A stretch of DNA of 45,457 nt. It comes from a virus (Duplodnaviria; Heunggongvirae; Uroviricota; Caudoviricetes). The DNA lies in the IMG/VR virus record IMGVR_UViG_3300032322_002674, positions 1 to 45,457 of that record. The stretch is one strand, 5' to 3'. Both the position numbers and the translations under genes were made by a program. Below are positions 12,649 through 43,196 of the stretch, one piece after another (the first letter of the stretch is position 1; every line of letters starts with the position of its first letter). The notes under the pieces were generated by a model. It was not told where the DNA came from. It worked only from the letters and a program-made list of their open reading frames with translations, and made no database searches.

Positions 12649-13875
12649 TTAAAAACAAACATTAAAAAATTCTTCTAATTCTTGTTTTGTTTTTATATTA
12701 ATTATTTTACCCTTATTTTTATTAAAAAATTCCATCCATGTTGATACCACTTTATTTACTTTCCAAGAATCAAAATAACTGATTACTATATCTTTAAATT
12801 CTTTTAAATCTATTACTTCACCGTTTTCAGTAGAATTATTAAACCAATTAAATAATCTATTTTTAAAACGTTCACAACCCTTATAACCTGAATCCTGCCA
12901 TTTACCACCTTCAAAATAATGATTAATAAACATCAAATACATTCTAAGAAGTTGTGGTTCATATTTATTTAAATCTACAACATTATTAAGTCTTTTACTC
13001 ATTTTATTACCATCTTCACCAAGAATCATACCTTGATGTACTACCTTCTTAAAAGGTTCATCAAAGTCAATATAACCAATATCATATAAAAATTTAGTTA
13101 TAAATCTTGAGTAAATAAGATGAGCACAAGCATGTTCATTTCCACCTACATATATATCAACTGGTTTAGTTTTATCATACATTATTGTATAAAAAGAAGA
13201 ATCAACAAATGTATCTAAAGTATCACTTTCACCTTCCATTGGTATTGGGCAACCCCAACTTCTTTGCCTTGATACACACCAATCTCTAAAATTATCTTCT
13301 CTTAACCAATAAAGTTGTTGTTTTTTAGTCTTTTCAGGGTAGTCAACTTTTTCTAAATCTTTAATAAGTCTTTCTCTATAATCTGTAATTTTAAAATACC
13401 ATTGTTCCATTTCTTTTTGTTCTATTATTGCACCACTTCTTTCACCCCTTCCTTCTATAATTTGTTCATTTGCAAGAACTGTTTTATCAATTGGGTCCCA
13501 ATTAACTAAACCCATTTTTTTATAAGCAAGTCCATGTTTATAAAGTTCTTTAAATAACCATTGTGTTTTTTCAATATAATAAGATTCAGATGTAATTAAT
13601 TTCTCTTCAAAAGAAGTATTCATTCTAACCATTTCCTTGCGGAAATTTTCTATATTCTCATAAGTTACTTCTTTAGGATTTCTACCAATTTTTTTTGCAT
13701 AATTTTCTGCTGGAAGTCCAAAAGAATCAAATCCAAATGGTTGAAAAACATTATATCCTTTAAATCTTTGTATTTTACAATAAGAATCTACAATTGAGTA
13801 GTTATACCAATGTCCACAATGTAATCCACTACCTGATGGATAAGGGAACATAACTGTAATAAATAAATTTTTCAT
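12649..13875 (-). CDS. leuS: minimal leucyl-tRNA synthetase (class Ia), ~408 aa, lacking the CP1 editing domain
   Basis: MFPYPSG-LHCGH (HIGH), GFDSFGLPAENYA, TVLANEQI, QWYFKITDY, RDWCVSRQRSWG, DTLDTFVDSS, YVGGNEHA, KMSKR. Start reassigned to ATG 13875, 4 nt after a TATATTTG box. Confidence 0.9.
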   Translation of the reverse strand: MKNLFITVMFPYPSGSGLHCGHWYNYSIVDSYCKIQRFKGYNVFQPFGFDSFGLPAENYAKKIGRNPKEVTYENIENFRKEMVRMNTSFEEKLITSESYYIEKTQWLFKELYKHGLAYKKMGLVNWDPIDKTVLANEQIIEGRGERSGAIIEQKEMEQWYFKITDYRERLIKDLEKVDYPEKTKKQQLYWLREDNFRDWCVSRQRSWGCPIPMEGESDTLDTFVDSSFYTIMYDKTKPVDIYVGGNEHACAHLIYSRFITKFLYDIGYIDFDEPFKKVVHQGMILGEDGNKMSKRLNNVVDLNKYEPQLLRMYLMFINHYFEGGKWQDSGYKGCERFKNRLFNWFNNSTENGEVIDLKEFKDIVISYFDSWKVNKVVSTWMEFFNKNKGKIINIKTKQELEEFFNVCF

Positions 13876-17252: not shown

Positions 17253-18710
17253 ATGGGATTTTACAGAACATATTTTACAAAGAATAATACAATACTTAGA
17301 AATCGTTTGGTTAATACTGCAAAAAACCAAGTAACAGAATTATATTACGGTAAAGATGTTCCTATATTTTCAGGTAATACAAGTGGTTTTAGTGGAACAA
17401 CAGATTTTTCCAGATTCTTATTTCAGTTTGATGTAACTGAATTAAGGGAAAAATATATGGATAAAACCATCATATCTTCCACCACAATCACTCATAAACT
17501 AAAAATGACTAATACATCATCTTTTGATAGAAGTCTCTTAGGAAAACCGTTTAAAGACTATTTTAGAGCAACATCATTTGATTTAATTCTTTTTAGAATA
17601 CCAGAATCTTGGGATGAAGGTGTTGGATATGATTATAATAATAGAAATTCAATTAATTTCCAAACAAATGAAACTTTTTTATTGGGTCCATCAAATTTCA
17701 TAGAAAGGGGAACAAACCAAAATTGGACATTAACTGGTGCAGTTGGTGGTAATCCAACAATATTAAGGGAACAACATTTTGATAATGGTGATGAAAATCT
17801 TGAAATGGATATTACAGATATTGTAAATGATTTAATTACTGGAACAACCGAAAATTATGGTTTTGGTATTGCATTTAGAAGTGATTATGAAAGATTAGTT
17901 ACTGATGAAAAATATTATGTTGGATTTTTCACAAAATATACACAAACACTTTTTGAACCACATATAGAAACAGTTTGGGATGATACTGTACTTGATGATA
18001 GAAACAAATTTTATCAAAACAAATTAAATCGTCTTTATCTTTATGCAAATATTGGTGGAAATTATGAAAATATTGAAATAGGTCAGGTTAAAATATATGA
18101 TAATGAAGGTAATGTTTTTAGAACATTTTCATCCCAACAAATAAAACAATCAACCAAAGGTGTTTATTATGTTGAATTTAGTGTTTTAGATACTGATTCA
18201 GAATGTCAGGTTAATTTTATTGATGTATGGAAAGATATATACTATAATGGTGTAAAACAACCTGATGTGCAAATGTATTTTACAATACAACCAAATACAA
18301 AATTCTTTTATATAAATAATAATGATAAATTACCAACCAATTATTCAATATCATTAAATGGTATTAAAAAAGATGAAACAATTTTAAGGGGTGATATTAG
18401 AAGAATTACAGTTTTTGCAAAAAAAGATTTTGAAAAAAATAATGAAGTTATTGATGGATTAAAATGGAGAATATATTTAAAACAAGGTACAGAAGAAATA
18501 CCTATAACAAATTGGTTAGATGTTAATAGGGGTTATACTTATAATTGGTTTGAATTAGATACCAGTTTTTTATTACCAACGATTTATTATTTGGATATTA
18601 AATTAGAAACAGGAAATTATGTTAAAACCTATAATGAAACTTTAAAATTCTTTGTTGTTGGTGTTGATGATAAATTTAATTTATTAACTGCAAGGGATTA
18701 TCTTGGTTAA
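17253..18710 (+). CDS. putative virion structural protein (beta-rich, Ig/jelly-roll-like)
   Basis: 485-aa ORF after the ATATTTAT motif; SRFLFQFD, ESWDEGVG, MDITDIVN, NYGFGIAF pattern typical of phage tail/baseplate-associated proteins. Confidence 0.55.
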   Translation: MGFYRTYFTKNNTILRNRLVNTAKNQVTELYYGKDVPIFSGNTSGFSGTTDFSRFLFQFDVTELREKYMDKTIISSTTITHKLKMTNTSSFDRSLLGKPFKDYFRATSFDLILFRIPESWDEGVGYDYNNRNSINFQTNETFLLGPSNFIERGTNQNWTLTGAVGGNPTILREQHFDNGDENLEMDITDIVNDLITGTTENYGFGIAFRSDYERLVTDEKYYVGFFTKYTQTLFEPHIETVWDDTVLDDRNKFYQNKLNRLYLYANIGGNYENIEIGQVKIYDNEGNVFRTFSSQQIKQSTKGVYYVEFSVLDTDSECQVNFIDVWKDIYYNGVKQPDVQMYFTIQPNTKFFYINNNDKLPTNYSISLNGIKKDETILRGDIRRITVFAKKDFEKNNEVIDGLKWRIYLKQGTEEIPITNWLDVNRGYTYNWFELDTSFLLPTIYYLDIKLETGNYVKTYNETLKFFVVGVDDKFNLLTARDYLG

Positions 18711-19519
18711 ATTGGTAATTTAACTTTTGAAAGAATTTTATTTGAAATATGAGTATATATTTCGGTAGTTTTTACATTTGAATGTCCTGCGATATTAGAT
18801 ATTATTTTTAAATCTGTTCCTGTTTCTAAAAGAGTTGTAAAACATGAATGACGCAGATTATGAATTGATGTTTTATAATCAATATATTTTTTATATATTT
18901 GTTGACAAGATTTTATAGAATATTTTCCTGAATTTTGTCCATTAAATAAATAAACTTTTGGTTTGTATATTTTATAATAATCACGAAGAAGATTTAAAAT
19001 ATTTTCTGATAATGGTACAATTCTATCTTTTTTTCCTTTTGAGTTTAATATATTTATAATCATTCTTTTTGAATCAATATCTTCGATTTTTAAGTTTACT
19101 ATTTCTGAAACTCTTAAACCTACTGAAAAACATAAAGATAATATTGTTTTATGTTTTAAGTTTTTTATATTATTAATTTTTTTAATAATTGTTTCTGAAT
19201 CAATTACTTTAGGTAATTTCTTTTCTTTTAAAGGTCGAATAAAAGAAATTTTATCATATTTTTTATTTAGGACTTCTTTATATAAAAATTTTAGGGAACT
19301 GATTATTTGATTTTGTTGTGAAGATGAAGAATAATTGTAATTTGTAACGTATTCTTGGAAATCAGAAGAATTTAATCTTGTAAATGATTTATTCTGTTTT
19401 TTAAAAAATTCACAAATATAATGTAAATAAATATTTTTAGTATTTTCAGAAAAACCCTTTAATTTCAATTTTTGGACACAAATTTCGTAATAGTTAGTTT
19501 CTTTCATATTGAAAATCAA
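18707..19519 (-). CDS. tyrosine recombinase (integron-like integrase) with N-terminal SAM-like domain
   Basis: Complete catalytic set: GLRVSE (R), KGKKDR (K), HNLRH (HxxR), AGH, TTEIYTH (Y). Likely ATG start at 19507. Lacks the IntI-specific insertion before the YLF patch. Confidence 0.93.
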   Translation of the reverse strand: MIFNMKETNYYEICVQKLKLKGFSENTKNIYLHYICEFFKKQNKSFTRLNSSDFQEYVTNYNYSSSSQQNQIISSLKFLYKEVLNKKYDKISFIRPLKEKKLPKVIDSETIIKKINNIKNLKHKTILSLCFSVGLRVSEIVNLKIEDIDSKRMIINILNSKGKKDRIVPLSENILNLLRDYYKIYKPKVYLFNGQNSGKYSIKSCQQIYKKYIDYKTSIHNLRHSCFTTLLETGTDLKIISNIAGHSNVKTTEIYTHISNKILSKVKLPI

Positions 19520-19559
19520 TTAGTTATGGGTAGTTAGATATATACAATAGTTAGTTGCA
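19511..19559 (+). other. attI-like primary recombination site
   Basis: Immediately 5' of the recombinase; three TAGTTA direct repeats (19521, 19531, 19548). The last gives GTTAGTTGCA (19550-19559), which is 9/10 complementary to TACAACTAAC (20338-20347) at the end of cassette 1. No hairpin. Confidence 0.68.
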
Positions 19560-19596
19560 ATTGCTACATTTGTTTTTAAATTAAACATTTGTGTAA

Positions 19597-20295
19597 ACAT
19601 TTTTATTCTTTTTTTTGCCTACACACTACAAAAATATAAAAATTTTTAGTAAAAAACAATTTTTTAATATATTTATATAAAAATAAAACAATTTTATATG
19701 AGAACAACAAAAATTACTTTAAATGAATTACGTAGCTTAATAAAACAGATTATTAAGGAAGAAAGAATGCTGAATGAATCCCTAAATAAAGATATTAGGG
19801 AATTTGGTAAGGATTTAGGAAAATATTTAACAAATTCTGGTTTTAAAGTTAAATTTATGAGTGGTAGAATGTCTGATGAAGATATGAAGCAAATAAAAAC
19901 GAACACAAATCTTGTGGGTTTAGTGTTAGACCAAAATGATTCACAACAATCCTTGTACATGCACTTCAATCCAAAAGACTTAAACAATATAGAAAAAATA
20001 GTTGATAAATTTCAATTATCACCATATAGAGGTAAAGTTATGTCTAAAGGTTGGACAAATAAACAAGTTGTTGGTGCATTAAATCCTGGAGATATTTTTA
20101 AGTGGGATAGTCAAAAGGATAGTGGTCTATATCAATTTTTTAGACTAAAAAAGGTTGACAGTAAAGTTTCCAATGTGTAACCCCAACACACAAAATTAAT
20201 AAAAAAATTTGGAAAAAAAACAACAGCCAGTTAGTGAAAGTTTAAGATTAAGAAATTATTTTAAATAATCCACCACACAAAAAGAATAAAAATGT
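19597..20295. repeat. 17-bp perfect inverted repeat flanking the cassette 1 gene
   Basis: ACATTTTTATTCTTTTT (19597-19613) / AAAAAGAATAAAAATGT (20279-20295). Confidence 0.7.
19698..20180 (+). CDS. cassette 1 protein, putative capsid-internal protein
   Basis: 160-aa ORF with its own ATATTTAT motif (19669-19676); leader MRTTKITLNELRSLIKQIIKEERMLNES has several (I/L)xE sites. Confidence 0.7.
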   Translation: MRTTKITLNELRSLIKQIIKEERMLNESLNKDIREFGKDLGKYLTNSGFKVKFMSGRMSDEDMKQIKTNTNLVGLVLDQNDSQQSLYMHFNPKDLNNIEKIVDKFQLSPYRGKVMSKGWTNKQVVGALNPGDIFKWDSQKDSGLYQFFRLKKVDSKVSNV

Positions 20296-20340
20296 CTTAG
20301 TGCTTTGATTGGAGTTCCGTAGTAAATAATCCGCAACTAC

Positions 20341-20395
20341 AACTAACAGCGTGTATAAAACATTAAAACGATTTTATACACGCAAAACGTTATGC
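20341..20395 (+). other. attC-like site 1 (55 bp)
   Basis: AACTAAC-A-GCGTGTATAAAA-loop-TTTTATACACGC-AAAAC-GTTATGC; 12-bp perfect stem. Confidence 0.85.
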
Positions 20396-20414
20396 GAAAA
20401 TTTGCTTACCACCC

Positions 20415-20741
20415 TCAATACTCCGAATGAACTTTAGGATTGATTTTTTCAATTTCTGCATACGCTTCTTCAAACTCTTTTGTAATGTGTGGCTTTATTG
20501 GCATCTGTTTCGCTATGTAAGCCATACACGCATCTATTCCTTTCCAACTATATTTTTTGTAAATAGGTAGCACCCATTCCAAATCTTGTGCATCTATCAA
20601 TACCATATCTGCACACGCATAATTGAAAAAATCATTGGCGTTCATAGCTATTCCAAATGAGCCTTTAATCAGCCCACGCAAATCATCGCATAACAGCACA
20701 TTGGCGTTATTGCTTTCCGTTTTCAAATTATCATTTTCCAT
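20415..20741 (-). CDS. cassette 2 hypothetical protein (antisense, starts inside attC2)
   Basis: 108-aa ORF; visibly more GC/CpG-rich than the backbone; ATG at 20741 lies in the hairpin loop. Confidence 0.75.
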   Translation of the reverse strand: MENDNLKTESNNANVLLCDDLRGLIKGSFGIAMNANDFFNYACADMVLIDAQDLEWVLPIYKKYSWKGIDACMAYIAKQMPIKPHITKEFEEAYAEIEKINPKVHSEY

Positions 20742-20808
20742 ATTATTAAATTTAGTGTTTCAATTAAGCATCTTTGTGGCAACAACGCCAGTCTGCAAAA
20801 CGTTATGT
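20688..20808 (+). other. attC-like site 2 (~121 bp)
   Basis: GCATAAC-A-GCACATTGGCGTTATTGC ... GCAACAACGCCAGTCTGC-AAAAC-GTTATGT; 15/18 stem. Confidence 0.85.
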
Positions 20809-20812
20809 TTAA

Positions 20813-21059
20813 TTAAAAATTATTACGTGGGAAGTACTCCAACCCAGTTTCACTTATCATTATATTGTCAACAAATTTTATATCAACTTCTTCGTATTGT
20901 AACTCACCATTATAATACCTTGATATATGTAGTTTTTCACCTGTTCCATATCTACATTCAACTGATGAAGTATCATCGTCCCATGTAGGACACCAATCAG
21001 GTATTTTAATTTTACTGGCTTTCTGCTTCGTTTGAAAGTTTTTTGTTTAAATTATCCAT
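20813..21059 (-). pseudogene. cassette 3 gene disrupted by an internal deletion/frameshift
   Basis: Leader MDNLNKKLSNEAESQ* (21059-21012) is out of frame with a ~69-codon body KASKIKIPDWCPTWDDD...EYFPRNNF* ending at 20813. Confidence 0.65.
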
Positions 21060-21122
21060 TGTTTTTCGTATTAAGTTTTGAGGTATTAATCAGCCACCTC
21101 GTTTAGCTGCCAAACGTTATGA
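21016..21122 (+). other. attC-like site 3 (left arm mostly deleted)
   Basis: Right arm AGCCACCTCGTTTAGCTGC-CAAAC-GTTATGA is intact; only TGGCT (21016-21020) of the left arm remains. Confidence 0.65.
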
Positions 21123-21446
21123 AACATTCTTCATCCTTCTATTGATGTTCGCTAAAATCATATCATACTCGATAAATATGACATCACCTTCTCGTTCATC
21201 ACTTTCTTTATATCTACTCGGTTTGTAAAAATCTCTAACCATTTGTTTAGCTTCGACATATTTACCTTCGTTTAATAATGGTTCAATTTGTTCTGATATG
21301 ATTTTAGCTAATTTCTCACCCATAACATCAATATATCTATAATATTCCAATGAACGTTTCATAACATCAGATATATTCAAGTTTTCTGATTCGGTTAATT
21401 TAAACTTGTTAAATTTGTCAATGTGTTGTCTCATTTCTTTACTCAT
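21117..21446 (-). CDS. cassette 4 hypothetical protein (antisense, starts inside attC4)
   Basis: 109-aa ORF; ATG in the attC4 loop; its TAA stop is the TTA of the GTTA core at 21116-21119. Confidence 0.75.
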   Translation of the reverse strand: MSKEMRQHIDKFNKFKLTESENLNISDVMKRSLEYYRYIDVMGEKLAKIISEQIEPLLNEGKYVEAKQMVRDFYKPSRYKESDEREGDVIFIEYDMILANINRRMKNVS

Positions 21447-21493
21447 AATTTTCTTTTATAAGAAAAAACTACATATATCTGTGTCCGTTATGT
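21359..21493 (+). other. attC-like site 4 (~135 bp)
   Basis: TCATAAC-AT-CAGATATAT..AGTTTT ... AAAACT..ATATATCTG-TGTCC-GTTATGT. Confidence 0.75.
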
Positions 21494-21636
21494 TCAATTT
21501 TTAAAAAATTATGAGTTTCTATTATTAAATTCTTCTGAACTAATTCTATCGTGGTAGGTATGGACATCACCACAATTACTACCGCATAATACTCTTTTTT
21601 AAGTGCTTCGTATTTCATAGGTATAAATTAATTTTT

Positions 21637-21896
21637 ACTAAATATAACAACAAATACTATACCATTTTCATCCTCAAAAGAAATTTTTCTGAAACTTTTG
21701 TATTAAACCGTAAGTTTAAATCTAATTCTCTTGTAAAATTTCTTTTAATCCATCCTTTGAATCAAATAAATAATCTGTGATGAAATATTTTACAATAACT
21801 TCCACCAACATTCTTCTGTAACTTTTGTTTTCTAATTCTAACATAATTTTAAGTTTTAATTTGTAAATTTTGTTTAACTAAATATAACAACAAATA
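21637..21896. repeat. 20-bp perfect direct repeat, 240 bp apart (possible minus-strand promoters)
   Basis: ACTAAATATAACAACAAATA at 21637-21656 and 21877-21896; each copy precedes a short minus-strand ORF (ATG 21618, 21844). Confidence 0.65.
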
Positions 21897-21918
21897 TAAG
21901 AAATAAATTTTGATTTGT

Positions 21919-32481: not shown

Positions 32482-32550
32482 ATATATATTTTTTTTAAAG
32501 TTAAACTATTGCAGAAAAAAGTAAAGAGATATTTATTAAAAAAAACATAA

Positions 32551-33987
32551 ATGTTAAAAATTTCTGACATATTAAATGAAATTGTTCAAGAAAATTTAAA
32601 TAAACTAAAAGAAGGTTTAAATCTAACATCTCGTGCTAAAAATAATTTAGAACAAAGGGAAGTATTTATAAAAGATAAATTAAATAAACCGATTGAAGAA
32701 TTAGATTTAAATGTTTTAGAATTAAATTTAAATAAAAATCAATTAGATATAATTGGTAAAAAAATAGTAGATAAATATCCATTTATAGAATATAAAGTTT
32801 TCCCATCCCATTTTCGTGAAAATTTAATAAGTTCAGAATATTATTTATTTCTTTATTTAAAAGAAGATAAAGATGTTTTTATTAGATTAGATTTATGGAT
32901 GGGTGATAAAAAAATAAGTGATGTTATTAATTATTTTAATAAAAAATTAGAAGAAAATAATTTAAATGAAAATACTGACCCAGCAGTTACAGATATTGCC
33001 AGAGCAAAAATATCTTTAAGTAAATCCAAAGATATTTTAAGGGATATGGGGGTTAATTTCGGTCAAGGAAAATGTTCTATACCAATTGGTTATAGTGGTG
33101 ATTTTTTTATGAATTCTTATGTTAGATTAATAAAATATAATGATATTAATAACCCAGTATTAACCCCAGGTAGTCAAAAATCACAAGATACATATAGATT
33201 ATTTGGTTCTGCATTAAATTTTTCTAATGTAAATGTTAATCAAAATCAACAACCCAATGGTGGTTCTCAAATAACATTATCTGGTGTTACTTTTGAATTT
33301 CAAGGTAATATGTGGGGAAAAATTAATAATAAAAAAGTTTGGTTAGATAACAAAGGAATCGAAGTTAATAATACAGTTTCAAATATATTGAATAGTATGT
33401 ATATAACAAATGAATCTAAAAATAAATTTTTAACATATAATAATATTGATTATGTAAAAACAAATATTGGTTGGGCAACATATAATAGAACAACTGGTAA
33501 AAGTGGTATGGTTATCACTAAAAAAAATAATGTACAACCAAATCAAACAACATTAAATAATGAATGGTTTAAAATTAATCCAATACCTAAAAATTATTCA
33601 TTAAAATATAATGGTTTTGATTATAAATTTGGTGAAGTTAAAAAAATTCAATCACCTTTAACTAAAAATTTAAATCAACAACTAACTAATGAATGGTTAA
33701 AACAAAATTCACAAAATCAAACCAATCAAATATCAAATGTAACTGTACTTGATGATATTTCAATAGAAAGTACAAAAGAAAAATTAGTTAATTGTGAAAT
33801 AGAATTTTATGAATTTGATTCTTCTTTTTTGAATAAACCTTTGCAAAAAGGATTTAGACCAAGAAAATTAACACCAGGTTCTTTTATAAAATGTAAAACA
33901 AATTATTATATAAAAATTTTAAAATCTTATCCCAAAATGAATAATTGTGAATGGGGTGTGATTTATATAACCCAATTAGAAATTTAA
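32551..33987 (+). CDS. putative virion protein carrying one copy of the EGLxLTSRA module
   Basis: ATATTTAT at 32529-32536; leader with ILNE/LKE; internal NNEW/TNEW repeats; directly upstream of the tape-measure-like gene. Confidence 0.6.
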   Translation: MLKISDILNEIVQENLNKLKEGLNLTSRAKNNLEQREVFIKDKLNKPIEELDLNVLELNLNKNQLDIIGKKIVDKYPFIEYKVFPSHFRENLISSEYYLFLYLKEDKDVFIRLDLWMGDKKISDVINYFNKKLEENNLNENTDPAVTDIARAKISLSKSKDILRDMGVNFGQGKCSIPIGYSGDFFMNSYVRLIKYNDINNPVLTPGSQKSQDTYRLFGSALNFSNVNVNQNQQPNGGSQITLSGVTFEFQGNMWGKINNKKVWLDNKGIEVNNTVSNILNSMYITNESKNKFLTYNNIDYVKTNIGWATYNRTTGKSGMVITKKNNVQPNQTTLNNEWFKINPIPKNYSLKYNGFDYKFGEVKKIQSPLTKNLNQQLTNEWLKQNSQNQTNQISNVTVLDDISIESTKEKLVNCEIEFYEFDSSFLNKPLQKGFRPRKLTPGSFIKCKTNYYIKILKSYPKMNNCEWGVIYITQLEI

Positions 33988-38762: not shown

Positions 38763-39683
38763 TTATTTTATAATAGGTGAATTTAAAGGATGCAAAAATC
38801 TATCAAATTCAAAAATAGGTTGTTCAGATATTTCAGAATAAAAAGTTTCATTTAGATTTTTTCCAAACATCTCATAATTCAATAAGTTAATTTTTTTGTA
38901 CAATTTCTTTTCGTAATTGTTTATTTTTGATTTAATCATTCCTGACCAATAAGAAATAAAGTGTTCTGTATTTCTTGTTCTATCACCTTTTAATTCCTTA
39001 AATTTATTTATATATTCATCAATATTGTTAACATTTTTTAAATGTTTCTTAAAATCAAAATTTTTATATTGATTTAGATATTTAAATTCTTCTGAATTAA
39101 AAAATATATCCCAACTTTGTTTTGTGTTATTTGGATTACTATTTTTTATATGATGTAGTATAGAATTTATTCTAGCAGATTCCTCTGAATTTAAAAAATA
39201 GTAAAGTGTGTTAATGAAATAATTCCATATATCATCTTCATTATAAAGTTTTTGATATATTTTTGTATTTTCAATGTCTTTATTAATTCTATTGTTATTA
39301 AATGTTTTTATTAACTGATAAAGATGTAATAATTCATGTGATAAAATATATTCTATATTTTCTTCATTATTAATATTTAATGTAATTCCTATCTTTGCAT
39401 CATATACATCAAAATCACCGTAAAAATCAAATCTATTGGAACACCAACCATGATTTATGGTATAATCATTTTTGATTATAATCAATTCTATTAATAGTCC
39501 ATTTATATTATATTCTTTTAATTTAATATTTTCTTTTAAATTAATTTTTATTTCATTTTGTGATGTTAAATTCCATTTTTTATTGTTATATTTATTTAAG
39601 ATAATATTATAAAGATATTCTAAAGTCGGTTTCATTTCTTTTAAATACCCACTTTCAAGTAATAATTCCAATAAATACCTCAT
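38763..39683 (-). CDS. HEXXH zincin-like protein
   Basis: ILSHELLHLYQ with downstream SEESAR; likely start 39683 (MRYLLELLLES), since the longer ORF overlaps the upstream gene. Confidence 0.6.
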   Translation of the reverse strand: MRYLLELLLESGYLKEMKPTLEYLYNIILNKYNNKKWNLTSQNEIKINLKENIKLKEYNINGLLIELIIIKNDYTINHGWCSNRFDFYGDFDVYDAKIGITLNINNEENIEYILSHELLHLYQLIKTFNNNRINKDIENTKIYQKLYNEDDIWNYFINTLYYFLNSEESARINSILHHIKNSNPNNTKQSWDIFFNSEEFKYLNQYKNFDFKKHLKNVNNIDEYINKFKELKGDRTRNTEHFISYWSGMIKSKINNYEKKLYKKINLLNYEMFGKNLNETFYSEISEQPIFEFDRFLHPLNSPIIK

Positions 39684-39963: not shown

Positions 39964-40461
39964 CTAAAAATATTTTATTGAATAGACAATTCTTTTTAAT
40001 TGTTCTTTTCTAAAATCATTTCTAATAATTCCTTTCATTTTATTTTTTCTTTTATGTGGGTATTTTACATAATTAAATGCATCATTATAATTCATTTCAG
40101 TATTCTCAACTATTTTTTTTATTCTTTCTTCACCTGCATTAGATTTTTCTTTTTTAACCATTAAAACATATTCTTTTATTTTATCAGAAAAAATATCATA
40201 ACCGTTAAAAAGAGTTTGTAACCTATCTATAAAAAATTCATTAAAATAAACTTTTTTGTTTCCATCAGTTTGTGGTGAAAAATTTATTGTATCAGGATTA
40301 ATATTCTTTATGAAATCATTAATTATTTTATATGCAGTTGCAGTTGAACGAACCGTATAAAACTATATAATAAAATATAGTAATTTCCTAATTCTTTCAT
40401 TCACATAATGATTTAAAAATTTATCTTCACTAATAATATTTTTAATAAATTCTATTGTCAT
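39964..40461 (-). pseudogene. ORF interrupted by a single in-frame TAG
   Basis: ATG 40461 overlaps the upstream TGA; the frame is continuous with ORF 39964-40161 except for TAG at 40363-40365. Confidence 0.55.
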
Positions 40462-43196
40462 AGATTATTTTTTATTCCTCTTGATGTTGTTGGAACTTTG
40501 TCAATACCTAATGATGGTTTAACCATTTTATTTTTATCTTTTGTATGTGTTTTTTTAAACTGATTATCCAAACCTATATCATATAGGGTTTCTTTCTTTT
40601 TATGTATTTGACCTCTGTATTGATTTAAAATATTTTCAATCCAACTTTTCATTTCCAATCCACCTGCAAGATAAAAATCAATTCCATCATTATTTTTGTC
40701 AAAAAAGTTTTTTAACCTTTTAATTTCATAATAAGAAATAGTATTTTGATTTAAAAGGTAGTTTGAACGTTTTGATGACATTCCATATTCTTTTTGGTAT
40801 TTTTTTATTTCTTCTTTAACAAAACCAGGTATTACAAATTCTTTTCCTTCTAATTCAGAATTTGTTTCATTAAGTTTACCAAAACTATCATATTTTGAAT
40901 TATCATTTTCTTCATATTCTTTCATTTTTTCTAATGCATCACCTAATTTATTAAATCCATGAAATGTTGGTAAATTTGGGTGTACTAAAAGTATATCGAA
41001 ATGACTAAATCCAATAAATAAATTTTTCAAATAATCAGAATATATTATTATACTTATTCTATCAAATGTTATAGGGAAATTAATTTTTTTATTTAGTTCC
41101 CTTTCAAATTTTTCTTTTAATTTTTTTAAATTAGTATGATACAACGTAAAAAACCCCAAATCAGATGTTGTAAATTCTTCAATTGGTTTTTTTAAAATCT
41201 GATTTATATATTCTTCCCTTTGTTTTTCTTGTTGTGATGCACGAGATTTTATTTTATCACCTAAACCCTCTTTTATAAAATCATCTTCAATGTTACCACC
41301 AGTCAATATTTTTTCAATATTTTCTAAAGAATCTTTATCTAAATCAAAAGTATCATTATATATATTATAATGTCCTATAATATCCATATCATCATAATAA
41401 AAATATCCATAATACAGAACCCCAACATTAATCCAATCATCATCTTCAAGTGAAGGATTTAATTCTAAATTATCACTTAATAAACCCCTTCTATTTAATA
41501 TTTCTTTTAATTCGTTTTCATAATATTTTATTCTTTTATACCAATATTTAATTTGTTCAGATAATTTAGTTATTTCTTTTCTTTTTTCTTCATTAACAGA
41601 ATCAAATACTTCTTTTATTGGATTATATTCGTCATCCAAAACCATTCCCCAATTACTTTTATTTACTTGGGTTTTATTTATATATTCAATTTTTTGTTTT
41701 AGATTTTGGTTTGCACGAGAAGTTAATTTTAATCCTTCTTTTATTTCCTTTTGTTTAAAAATTCCTTTAAAAGTTTCTTTTTCTCTTTCAATAATTTCTT
41801 TTCCTTTTTGTATTAATTCTTTTATTGTATTTGCACTACCAAAAACTCTAACTGGTTGATTATAAGAAACCCCATTAGATAATGTTCTTCTTTCTATTGT
41901 AGAATAAGAATAAGTTAAATCAGGCAAATTACATCTAAAATTAACATCTTTAAGTTCAAATGTAACTGAATTAATAAATTTACCTTTTAATCCTTGTCTT
42001 TCTTCTATTTCATAATCATAATCACCCATTTCTTTAATTATGAAATCACTTATTTTGTAAGTATATTTTGGGTGGGTATCTAATAAAAAATTATATTCAG
42101 GATTTGATAAATTTTCTAAACCTTTTTTTAATATTTGATTTATATATTCCTCCCTTTGTCTTTCCTGGTCTCCAGCACGAGATTTTAAATTTAATCCCTC
42201 ACTTATATTTTCTTTTTTTAAAAAATCCAATAATTCACCAACAGTTTTAAATTCCTTATATAAAGTTATTTTTAAATTTTCTAATTCAGTTTTAATTAAA
42301 AGAATGAAATCATCCCAAAATTCAATTCTATAATAACCACTATCATCTAATGAAAAAGTAATTTTTGTTATATCATCTCTAAAATCCTTTTCAATTTCAT
42401 GATATGGTTCTTGTTGTAATTTTTGAAGTTTATCAATTATCTTAACATAAATTGGTTTTGCATTATCATCACCAATAAATCTAATTTCTTCTGGTGTTAC
42501 ATCATTAATATTTTTGGATAATATATTTCTAATATATTCTTCCCTTTGTTTTTCTTGTTGTGATGCACGAGAAGTTAGTTTTAAACCTTCATTTATTTTT
42601 TCACTCTCATATTTTATCTCTAATTTTTTTATTTCTTCATAAACCTTCGGTAAATAAAAATTACCTATAAAATCAAAAATTTCTTTGTTTGTTAAATTAT
42701 AATTATATATAATACTATCAATTATTCTATTATATGTTTCAGGTATGTGTATTATACTTTGGAACTCTGTGTCAATGTTTTTTTGTTTATCATAACTTAA
42801 ATGTATTGGAATAACAGGATAATTATCCCAAAAAGGTGTGGCATAAAACAAATATTTGTCATTTTCCCAACTTACAACACCTTCCAAACTATTTTTATAA
42901 ATTTCATAACCTTTATATTGACTTGGTATATTATTATTTATATTACCAGCAAATTCATTATAAAATGATTCTTTTTCTTTTTCATTTAAATCCAAATAAT
43001 CAAGTTCATTATAATATATTACTTGTCCATTATCAAATTTATGTCTAACATATTTTCGTTTTATATCATCTGGTAAAAATATAAAAACTTTTACTGGTAA
43101 ATTAAATTTTTCCTTATTTTTAATTTTATTTGAATAAAATTCTATTGCCTTTAGTTCTTGTTGATTGGCTCTAGAAGTTAGTTTTAAATTACCCAT
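40458..43196 (-). CDS. 912-aa modular putative virion (head-internal) protein with five repeat-delimited modules
   Basis: Recurrent (I)xE-GL(K/N)L(T/K)SRAxQQExQREEYI motif. Confidence 0.7.
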   Translation of the reverse strand: MGNLKLTSRANQQELKAIEFYSNKIKNKEKFNLPVKVFIFLPDDIKRKYVRHKFDNGQVIYYNELDYLDLNEKEKESFYNEFAGNINNNIPSQYKGYEIYKNSLEGVVSWENDKYLFYATPFWDNYPVIPIHLSYDKQKNIDTEFQSIIHIPETYNRIIDSIIYNYNLTNKEIFDFIGNFYLPKVYEEIKKLEIKYESEKINEGLKLTSRASQQEKQREEYIRNILSKNINDVTPEEIRFIGDDNAKPIYVKIIDKLQKLQQEPYHEIEKDFRDDITKITFSLDDSGYYRIEFWDDFILLIKTELENLKITLYKEFKTVGELLDFLKKENISEGLNLKSRAGDQERQREEYINQILKKGLENLSNPEYNFLLDTHPKYTYKISDFIIKEMGDYDYEIEERQGLKGKFINSVTFELKDVNFRCNLPDLTYSYSTIERRTLSNGVSYNQPVRVFGSANTIKELIQKGKEIIEREKETFKGIFKQKEIKEGLKLTSRANQNLKQKIEYINKTQVNKSNWGMVLDDEYNPIKEVFDSVNEEKRKEITKLSEQIKYWYKRIKYYENELKEILNRRGLLSDNLELNPSLEDDDWINVGVLYYGYFYYDDMDIIGHYNIYNDTFDLDKDSLENIEKILTGGNIEDDFIKEGLGDKIKSRASQQEKQREEYINQILKKPIEEFTTSDLGFFTLYHTNLKKLKEKFERELNKKINFPITFDRISIIIYSDYLKNLFIGFSHFDILLVHPNLPTFHGFNKLGDALEKMKEYEENDNSKYDSFGKLNETNSELEGKEFVIPGFVKEEIKKYQKEYGMSSKRSNYLLNQNTISYYEIKRLKNFFDKNNDGIDFYLAGGLEMKSWIENILNQYRGQIHKKKETLYDIGLDNQFKKTHTKDKNKMVKPSLGIDKVPTTSRGIKNNL
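41206..42572. repeat. 41-bp perfect intragenic direct repeat
   Basis: ATATATTCTTCCCTTTGTTTTTCTTGTTGTGATGCACGAGA at 41206-41246 and 42532-42572; degenerate copies near 41700, 42150, 43160 and on the + strand near 32620. Confidence 0.85.

Follow-up and report, generated by a model that had tools for sequence, protein, structure and literature searches.

An insertion-less tyrosine recombinase adjoins an integron-like array of hairpin-bounded cassettes on a large tailed phage

The present work concerns a gene for a tyrosine recombinase and the row of four small cassettes with hairpin sites that lies upstream of it in a stretch of viral DNA of 45,457 nucleotides (hereafter the window), which represents the first 45 kb of the 173-kb IMG/VR virus record IMGVR_UViG_3300032322_002674 (24% GC). 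The open reading frame (ORF) of the recombinase, located at 18707-19519 on the minus strand, would specify 270 amino acids (aa) if the TTG at 19519 were used; the start codon is likely the ATG at 19507, and the corresponding 266-aa form is identical to database protein P0001. The catalytic residues R136, K161, H220, R223, H246 and Y255 (270-aa numbering) are invariant in a 35-sequence alignment, and with this complete R-K-H-R-H-Y set and its simple two-domain architecture the protein has the general make-up of IntI, the integron integrase. For IntI enzymes a particular insertion is treated as a defining and essential feature, and its presence is required by detection tools.

This IntI-specific extra segment, which corresponds to the I2 helix region and is flanked by the lysine of the beta-hairpin on one side and the HxxR motif on the other, is absent from the window recombinase. 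Alignment to VchIntIA (PDB 2a3v) is obtained in two blocks (residues 19-184 with 14-183, and 213-268 with 260-315), leaving about 47-48 VchIntIA residues without a counterpart, and the alignment to Pyrococcus XerA (PDB 4a8e) is colinear. In a 140-sequence alignment the segment 176-216 of the window recombinase comprises 41 aa. E. coli XerC and XerD, with 50-54 aa at this place, already exceed that length, and in 12 IntIs (IntI2, IntI3, one integron integrase from a plasmid, two IntIs from phages and seven from genomes) the equivalent segment has 87-90 aa. An AlphaFold model (predicted local distance difference test, pLDDT, of 87.5) has just a 16-residue loop at the position of the IntI I2 helix, and the top fold matches of this model are VchIntIA 2a3v (E 6e-15, template modelling score 0.81) and XerA. 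Trp157 of VchIntIA, which MacDonald and colleagues are said to have found in 2006 to stack on an extrahelical base, aligns with Leu158 of the recombinase. None of the curated NCBIfam cut-offs is reached: XerA_Arch ranks first (164.9 bits, cut-off 220), followed by the integron integrase profile TIGR02249 (148.4 bits versus a cut-off of 265, in a match split into two stretches), XerD (135 versus 330), XerC (131 versus 335) and the IntI profile NF011946 (86.1 versus 435). An initial annotation of this DNA, made from its letters, had described an enzyme of ~266-270 aa with R-K-HxxR-H-Y intact and without the IntI insertion, which should not score as a normal IntI; each of these statements is borne out by the above data.

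The core of the attI-like region lies 42 nt upstream of the recombinase gene and is followed by the four cassettes (19551-21487), whose GC content of 0.26-0.36 compares with 0.24 for the backbone (Table 1). Sites 1, 2 and 4 read on the plus strand as TAAC, 1-2 nt, stem, loop, stem, 5 nt and GTTA; the motif CGTTATG occurs at 20388, 20801, 21115 and 21486, i.e. four times in the array versus 0.94 expected for the whole window, and in a perfect-stem search of the 45-kb window the array sites alone pass. The stem of site 1 is formed by 20349-20360 with 20372-20383, with 1 nt between TAAC and stem and 5 nt between stem and GTTA, and its loop TCGTTTTAATG is common to most 48-nt-class sites in other phages. 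Site 2 folds with -13.7 kcal/mol on the minus strand versus -9.7 kcal/mol on the plus strand, and at the remnant of site 3 neither strand folds better than shuffled sequences. The ORFs of cassettes 2 and 4 each start in the loop of their own site, the latter ending on the TAA of the next core. The window cassette proteins gave no significant Pfam or PADLOC match and have no homologues in other arrays except for the 28-aa leader encoded by site 4, which, at 100% identity, precedes an unrelated gene body in another viral locus (L027, 1774-1912). Similar leaders, with a motif like QLNISDV at their end, are encoded by many 125-nt sites, and the sites may be swappable N-terminal modules.

Between the last site and the first backbone gene there is an AT-rich stretch of 431 nt (21488-21918), which ends in a cassette-type flank ATTGAACA ahead of the TAAC of site 4 and may be the body of a terminal cassette without a site of its own. 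Just past the array an exact 19-nt direct repeat CTAAATATAACAACAAATA is found at 21638-21656 and 21878-21896, 240 nt apart (0.02 expected), which may be a phage promoter or operator for minus-strand genes.

Table 1. Coordinates of the recombinase gene, the adjoining array and two further phage genes in the window.
Feature	Positions	Strand	Description
Tyrosine recombinase gene	18707-19507	minus	266 aa from ATG at 19507; SAM_4 and Phage_integrase domains
attI-like region	19508-19553	minus	core TAAC on minus (GTTA 19550-19553 on plus), then geneward TATTGTATATAT
Cassette 1	19551-20389		GC 0.26; ORF 19698-20180 on plus; ends 9/11 complementary
Site 1 (attC1)	20344-20392	minus	short 48-49-nt class; perfect 12-bp stem; loop TCGTTTTAATG on minus
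Cassette 2	20390-20802		GC 0.36; ORF 20415-20741 on minus, 108 aa, no known family; ends 11/13 complementary
Site 2	20691-20805	minus	115 nt; 18-bp stem
Cassette 3	20803-21116		GC 0.32; truncated site; without intact ORF
Site 3 remnant	21091-21119	minus	core, bulge and one (GTTA-side) arm kept; partner arm and second core missing
Cassette 4	21117-21487		GC 0.28; ORF 21117-21446 on minus, 109 aa; ends 10/13 complementary
Site 4	21362-21490	minus	129 nt; encodes first 28 aa of cassette 4 ORF
ClpB/ClpC-type ATPase	3-2435	minus	full-length; phage-encoded
Class I tRNA-synthetase-like protein	12649-13875	minus	408 aa, far below cellular enzyme size

Relatives of the recombinase are present on at least 123 IMG/VR contigs, of which 80 viral contigs, with recombinases that are 52-67% identical, were kept for analysis. 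Applied to these 80 loci, a site finder whose sole requirement is a TAAC core linked to a GTTA core by a stem without gaps retrieved 351 sites in the 332 kb that lie upstream of the recombinase genes versus a single one in the 429 kb downstream. The upstream sites are all in one orientation and possess the same asymmetry of 5 nt versus 1-2 nt, the unpaired stretches, when read genewards, being 5+2 nt in 163 and 5+1 nt in 79 of 318 distinct sites, while their lengths fall into classes near 48, 79, 88, 125 and 200 nt. Two or more sites are present in 56 of the 65 loci for which at least 1 kb upstream is available, and none in two of these loci; arrays reach 14 or more sites within the 6 kb examined upstream. 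A conserved motif TAAC-TAT.ATATA, which does not form a hairpin, is located 36-64 nt ahead of the ATG in 65 of 76 loci, the distal side of its core being variable between loci and its proximal side conserved, and the region is considered a putative attI. No synteny of flanking phage genes is observed between the window and the 80 related loci, nor are these genes conserved among the loci, so that the platform sits in varied backbones. The same search returned no sites around true IntI genes, a null that says nothing about canonical attC sites because the finder is specific to the site architecture described here, and none around the integrase genes of the phages Ingeline and Freya (see below).

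On the recombinase-sense strand, being the bottom strand in integron terms, a site has the order TAAC, G, 4-nt bulge, stem-loop, T and GTTA. For 82 sites of 85-92 nt, RNAalifold yields 25 consensus pairs, 18 of which have compensatory changes, and in this consensus the 4-nt bulge is positioned on the 5' arm between core and stem, single extrahelical bases being absent. In 80 of the 82 sites the core is closed by a G·U pair between the G that follows TAAC and the T that precedes GTTA, and another position in the stem is G·U in 79 of them. Stem cells (4863 in total) contain 374 G·T versus 26 A·C on the recombinase-sense strand, both of which were penalised equally by the finder, and with DNA parameters 290 of 318 sites are more stable on this strand, the mean difference being 1.85 kcal/mol (p = 3e-45). 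The mRNA of the cassette genes likewise has the sense of this strand.

The boundaries of the cassettes are apparent from 226 distinct cassettes in which the bases after GTTA pair with the bases before the next TAAC, i.e. across the ORF. Watson-Crick pairing between these ends amounts to 85-89% at positions 1-4 and 79% at position 5, versus 27-51% expected, and the mutual information reaches 1.16 bits. Position 7 has a fixed T·G, and pairing can be followed as far as position 11; the two outer flanks of any one hairpin show no covariation (mutual information 0.01-0.06). Such pairing of cassette ends would be expected of an excised circle, in which both ends come together next to one site. The crossover side is assigned to the TAAC core because 219 alignments start at this core versus 21 at GTTA, because homologous gene bodies in differing contexts keep the upstream and not the downstream site (5 to 0), and because a cassette common to two viral loci (L027 and L066, >99% identity) begins with ATAAC and ends with CATAACGGTTG, with unrelated sequence on both sides. 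Movement of discrete units with crossover at the core is thus indicated by the covariation of the ends and by the breaks of the shared cassette at TAAC, the circles themselves being predicted intermediates.

Among 248 distinct cassettes (median 375 nt) the main ORF points toward the recombinase in 203 and away from it in five; of the 203 recombinase-facing ORFs, 79 have their start codon within the site, and for 43 the TAA of the next core serves as stop codon. The genes of classical integrons are oriented away from attI for expression from a promoter of the platform; here, the genes face the integrase and often start in their own site, so that a promoter at the integrase end would be unable to drive them. 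The 183 distinct cassette proteins fall into 148 clusters, and ~90% of 149 representatives are without a Pfam match. The matches obtained include three different DNA methyltransferases and the Thoeris inhibitor Tad6, in addition to an acetyltransferase, an exoribonuclease, an RNA ligase and a phosphatase, a cargo from which a counter-defence role of the cassette bank may be surmised.

The phylogenetic position of the recombinase was examined in a tree with E. coli XerC and XerD as its only outgroup and with rows picked for their resemblance to the query. All twelve IntIs that carry the insertion group together in one clade on a long stem (SH-aLRT, the Shimodaira-Hasegawa-like approximate likelihood ratio test, 100), and the viral recombinase family, together with four contigs from metagenome-assembled genomes, forms a clade of its own (95) to which the integrases of Cellulophaga phage Ingeline and Polaribacter phage Freya are sister (99). 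The IntI clade and the viral family share a larger group (99) which consists mostly of Bacteroidota recombinases and the internal order of which the tree leaves open. Owing to the similarity-chosen rows and the thin outgroup, this tree supports separation from IntI and not a direction of evolution; by insertion, profile score and tree placement alike, the recombinase is not an IntI. In the chromosomes of Bacteroidota, relatives of ~375 aa with an extension of roughly 100 aa are encoded (L113, L095 and L104; Aquimarina, Maribacter and an uncultured bacterium), where hairpin sites have other spacings or lie on the opposite side of the gene; these probably represent related systems with a different site geometry in Bacteroidota hosts.

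The initial annotation had gone on to propose a separate recombinase lineage that reads hairpin sites by different rules, and this proposal agrees with what is now seen. The perfect 12-bp stem of attC1 without an extrahelical base, with its asymmetry of 1 versus 5 nt beside the core, is found at 20344-20392 as described; close homologues lie beside such arrays in nearly all cases, and the family stands as its own clade next to a monophyletic IntI. As regards the different rules, the anatomy of the sites conforms to the proposal, since a 4-nt bulge and fixed G·T wobbles replace the extrahelical bases and a Leu occupies the position of Trp157, and the mechanism by which these marks would be read is considered below.

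In comparison with classical integrons (IntI1/attI1/attC and VchIntIA/VCR), the following is shared: a recombinase gene that adjoins an attI-type site and a one-way array of small cassettes; sites that are imperfect inverted repeats with AAC...GTT cores, all in one orientation, the integrase-sense (bottom) strand of which is the better-folding one; crossover at the core distal to the integrase; complementary cassette ends, as circles predict; diverse cargo, mostly of unknown function; and a fold for which VchIntIA is the best match. The differences are that the window enzyme is without the insertion, has Leu for Trp157 and scores below the IntI cut-offs, that the phage sites contain fixed G·T wobbles and a 4-nt bulge where classical sites have single extrahelical bases, and that the cassette genes face the integrase, often starting in their own site, on a platform that resides in a phage. 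With XerA and XerC/XerD (PDB 4a8e, 5hxy, 1a0p) the window enzyme shares its size, its two-domain layout without an arm-binding domain and colinearity, XerA_Arch being its top NCBIfam match; it differs in being associated with arrays and not with a single dif-like site, and the tree places it outside XerC/XerD. The integrases of Ingeline and Freya, of equal length, 35-40% identical and likewise devoid of the insertion, differ in that no TAAC...GTTA hairpin sites were found around their genes, and they are presumed to be lysogeny integrases.

A published description of such an insertion-less phage cassette system was not found in the literature covered, outside which most subscription journals fall. 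IntegronFinder 2.0 reports one complete integron in Bacteroidetes proper, to which a few from Chlorobi and Ignavibacteriae are to be added (PMC9024848). In phages, including Polaribacter phage P12002L, attC clusters that lack an integrase (CALINs) were described by Qi et al. 2023, who found the sites by means of attC detectors, treated them as ordinary attC sites and found no cognate integrase (PMC9892861). P12002L_attC1 was the sole one of six tested sites for which no recombination by IntI1 was observed (PMC9892861), and its sequence, as given in the primer table of that study, has a TAACG...TGTTA frame and the loop TCGTTTTAATG like site 1 of the window; the site is located amid DNA methyltransferase genes, and its failure with IntI1 is counted here as support for different site rules. 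In P12002L (L178), an isolated virulent phage whose annotation contains no recombinase of the viral insertion-less family, two further sites of the type TAACG, bulge, stem and TGTTA are located at 32491-32695 and 38879-38936, adjoining DNA methyltransferase genes. For the P12002L sites no cognate integrase was reported; the window contains both the presumed cognate enzyme and an attI-like site.

The most probable interpretation of these findings, in which we have good though not full confidence, is that the enzyme serves as site-specific recombinase for a gene-capture platform of integron-like character, carried by a large tailed phage with a probable Bacteroidota host. This platform would consist of the recombinase gene, the attI-type site 42 nt upstream of it and the row of mobile cassettes, each of which, on the recombinase-sense strand, would be composed of a hairpin site followed by one small gene pointing at the recombinase. 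The enzyme would most likely bind the folded recombinase-sense (bottom) strand of a site, as IntI does, cleave in the TAAC core beside the bulge and exchange strands with attI or with another site, by which cassettes would be excised as circles and inserted at attI. The choice of strand and site would be made through the 4-nt core-adjacent bulge, the core-closing G·T and the fixed G·T wobbles of the stem, wobbles that on the opposite strand would turn into A·C mismatches. Catalysis on single-stranded DNA, the exact cleavage position and a substitute for the I2 helix are elements of this mechanism that we infer. A more specific version, for and against which we consider the chances to be about even, holds that the enzyme is a minimal integrase which never had the insertion and acts on hairpins marked by bulge and wobbles, that the sites double as promoter, start or leader modules and that the arrays are exchangeable counter-defence banks.

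An explanation considered quite unlikely is that recombination occurs on duplex DNA around TAAC, in the manner of Xer at dif, the hairpins being RNA stem-loops for termination, processing or translation start. It would account for the fact that 203 of 208 cassette genes with an assigned orientation have the wobble-bearing strand as their sense strand, and for the 79 ORFs with a start inside a site, and it would fit an enzyme without the segment by which IntI reads folded DNA. However, the pairing of cassette ends across the ORF makes sense only if these ends are joined beside one site, as in a circle; the core pairs with a partner 48-200 nt away, the closing G·T being kept in 80 of 82 sites; and no second inverted arm is seen in the alignments at Xer-like spacing beside TAAC. 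The roles in RNA and in single-stranded recombination are nevertheless compatible and not mutually exclusive. Very improbable, in our estimation, is a recombinase that acts as a lysogeny integrase or dimer resolvase next to an array generated by homologous recombination between repeated regulatory stem-loops, an origin which Arbiol and colleagues reportedly proposed in 2010 for the promoter/stem-loop cassettes of T4-type phages. The nearest named relatives are indeed the annotated Ingeline and Freya integrases, with no sites around either; yet in 63 of the 65 loci gene and array are neighbours with one and the same relative orientation despite flanks that are not conserved, an attI-like core, identical in sequence to the cassette cores, is placed at a fixed distance from the start codon, and homology breaks within a few bases of the 4-bp core, a pattern that homologous recombination would not give.

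The viral enzyme may also be a secondarily reduced IntI which lost its insertion after the sites had changed, an explanation that we regard as unlikely. It is favoured by VchIntIA being the best structural match, by the strongly supported group that unites the family with IntI to the exclusion of XerC/XerD, and by the statement of Smyshlyaev et al. 2021 that conservation of the insertion is incomplete in the integron-like subgroup (PMC8138268). On the other hand, the IntI clade includes none of the 80-odd enzymes from Bacteroidota and phages that are without the insertion, the segment in question is shorter than that of XerC/XerD without any remnant of an insertion, and the NCBIfam score is slightly higher for archaeal XerA than for IntI.

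Several observations weigh against a capture platform of the kind preferred here. Within the window, the gene of cassette 1 has the rare (plus) orientation and site 3 is broken. The folding strand is the mRNA-sense strand, so that an RNA structure would account just as well for the G·U wobbles and the covariation. The linkage of site and gene body is based on five informative pairs, and 13 alignments start at the GTTA core. Furthermore, some gene bodies are found behind different site classes and some sites before different bodies, which implies that exchange does not take place at the TAAC core alone; for exchange on the GTTA side, use of the second core or homologous recombination within sites would be a partial explanation. 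As an example, a gene start common to L007:409-513 and L039:4565-4676 stands behind an 88-nt site in one phage and behind a 48-nt site in the other. Finally, the tree has a polytomy at the key node and E. coli XerC/XerD as its sole outgroup, and it consequently gives no answer as to whether the insertion was never gained or was lost.

With regard to the genome in which the platform resides, the 173-kb record has genes for the large terminase of a phage and for an RNA ligase/kinase and, judged by these genes along with the ClpB-like ATPase and the short tRNA-synthetase-like protein (Table 1), is that of a large tailed phage. The cellular relatives of the recombinase are nearly all from Bacteroidota, which suggests that the host probably belongs to this phylum. 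A giant eukaryotic virus was rejected given the phage large terminase; the record has no capsid match to nucleocytoplasmic large DNA viruses, a result that is weak alone since the capsid-profile controls were also silent. Similarly, no Pfam match to Gp23 or Portal_T4 was obtained for a T4-type phage, with controls that were silent too, making this check uninformative. Elsewhere in the window, a conserved linker (roughly 70-100 nt) is repeated several times within a 912-aa ORF (40458-43196, minus strand), and an inverted related copy of this linker is present at 32602-32702, within the ORF 32551-33987 on the plus strand.

The element described here keeps the logic of an integron with different structural marks on its sites and a reversed gene direction, the mechanism being deduced from this anatomy. 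Gene capture of the integron type may therefore not need the IntI insertion and, if this is true, the I2 helix would be dispensable for hairpin recombination and the lineage would show integrons as they were before, or are beside, IntI, making the origin of strand-selective hairpin recombination directly testable. Since the tools in use require the insertion, they would miss such elements, which would explain the near-absence of integrons in Bacteroidota and their phages. The platform would also offer a small recombinase with a compact, differently coded site that is presumably used as a single strand. According to a recent view, the chromosomal integrons of bacteria are banks of anti-phage defence genes; the phage cassette arrays mirror these banks, and they reveal a large unannotated pool of mobile phage genes, including orphan methyltransferases and a Thoeris inhibitor.

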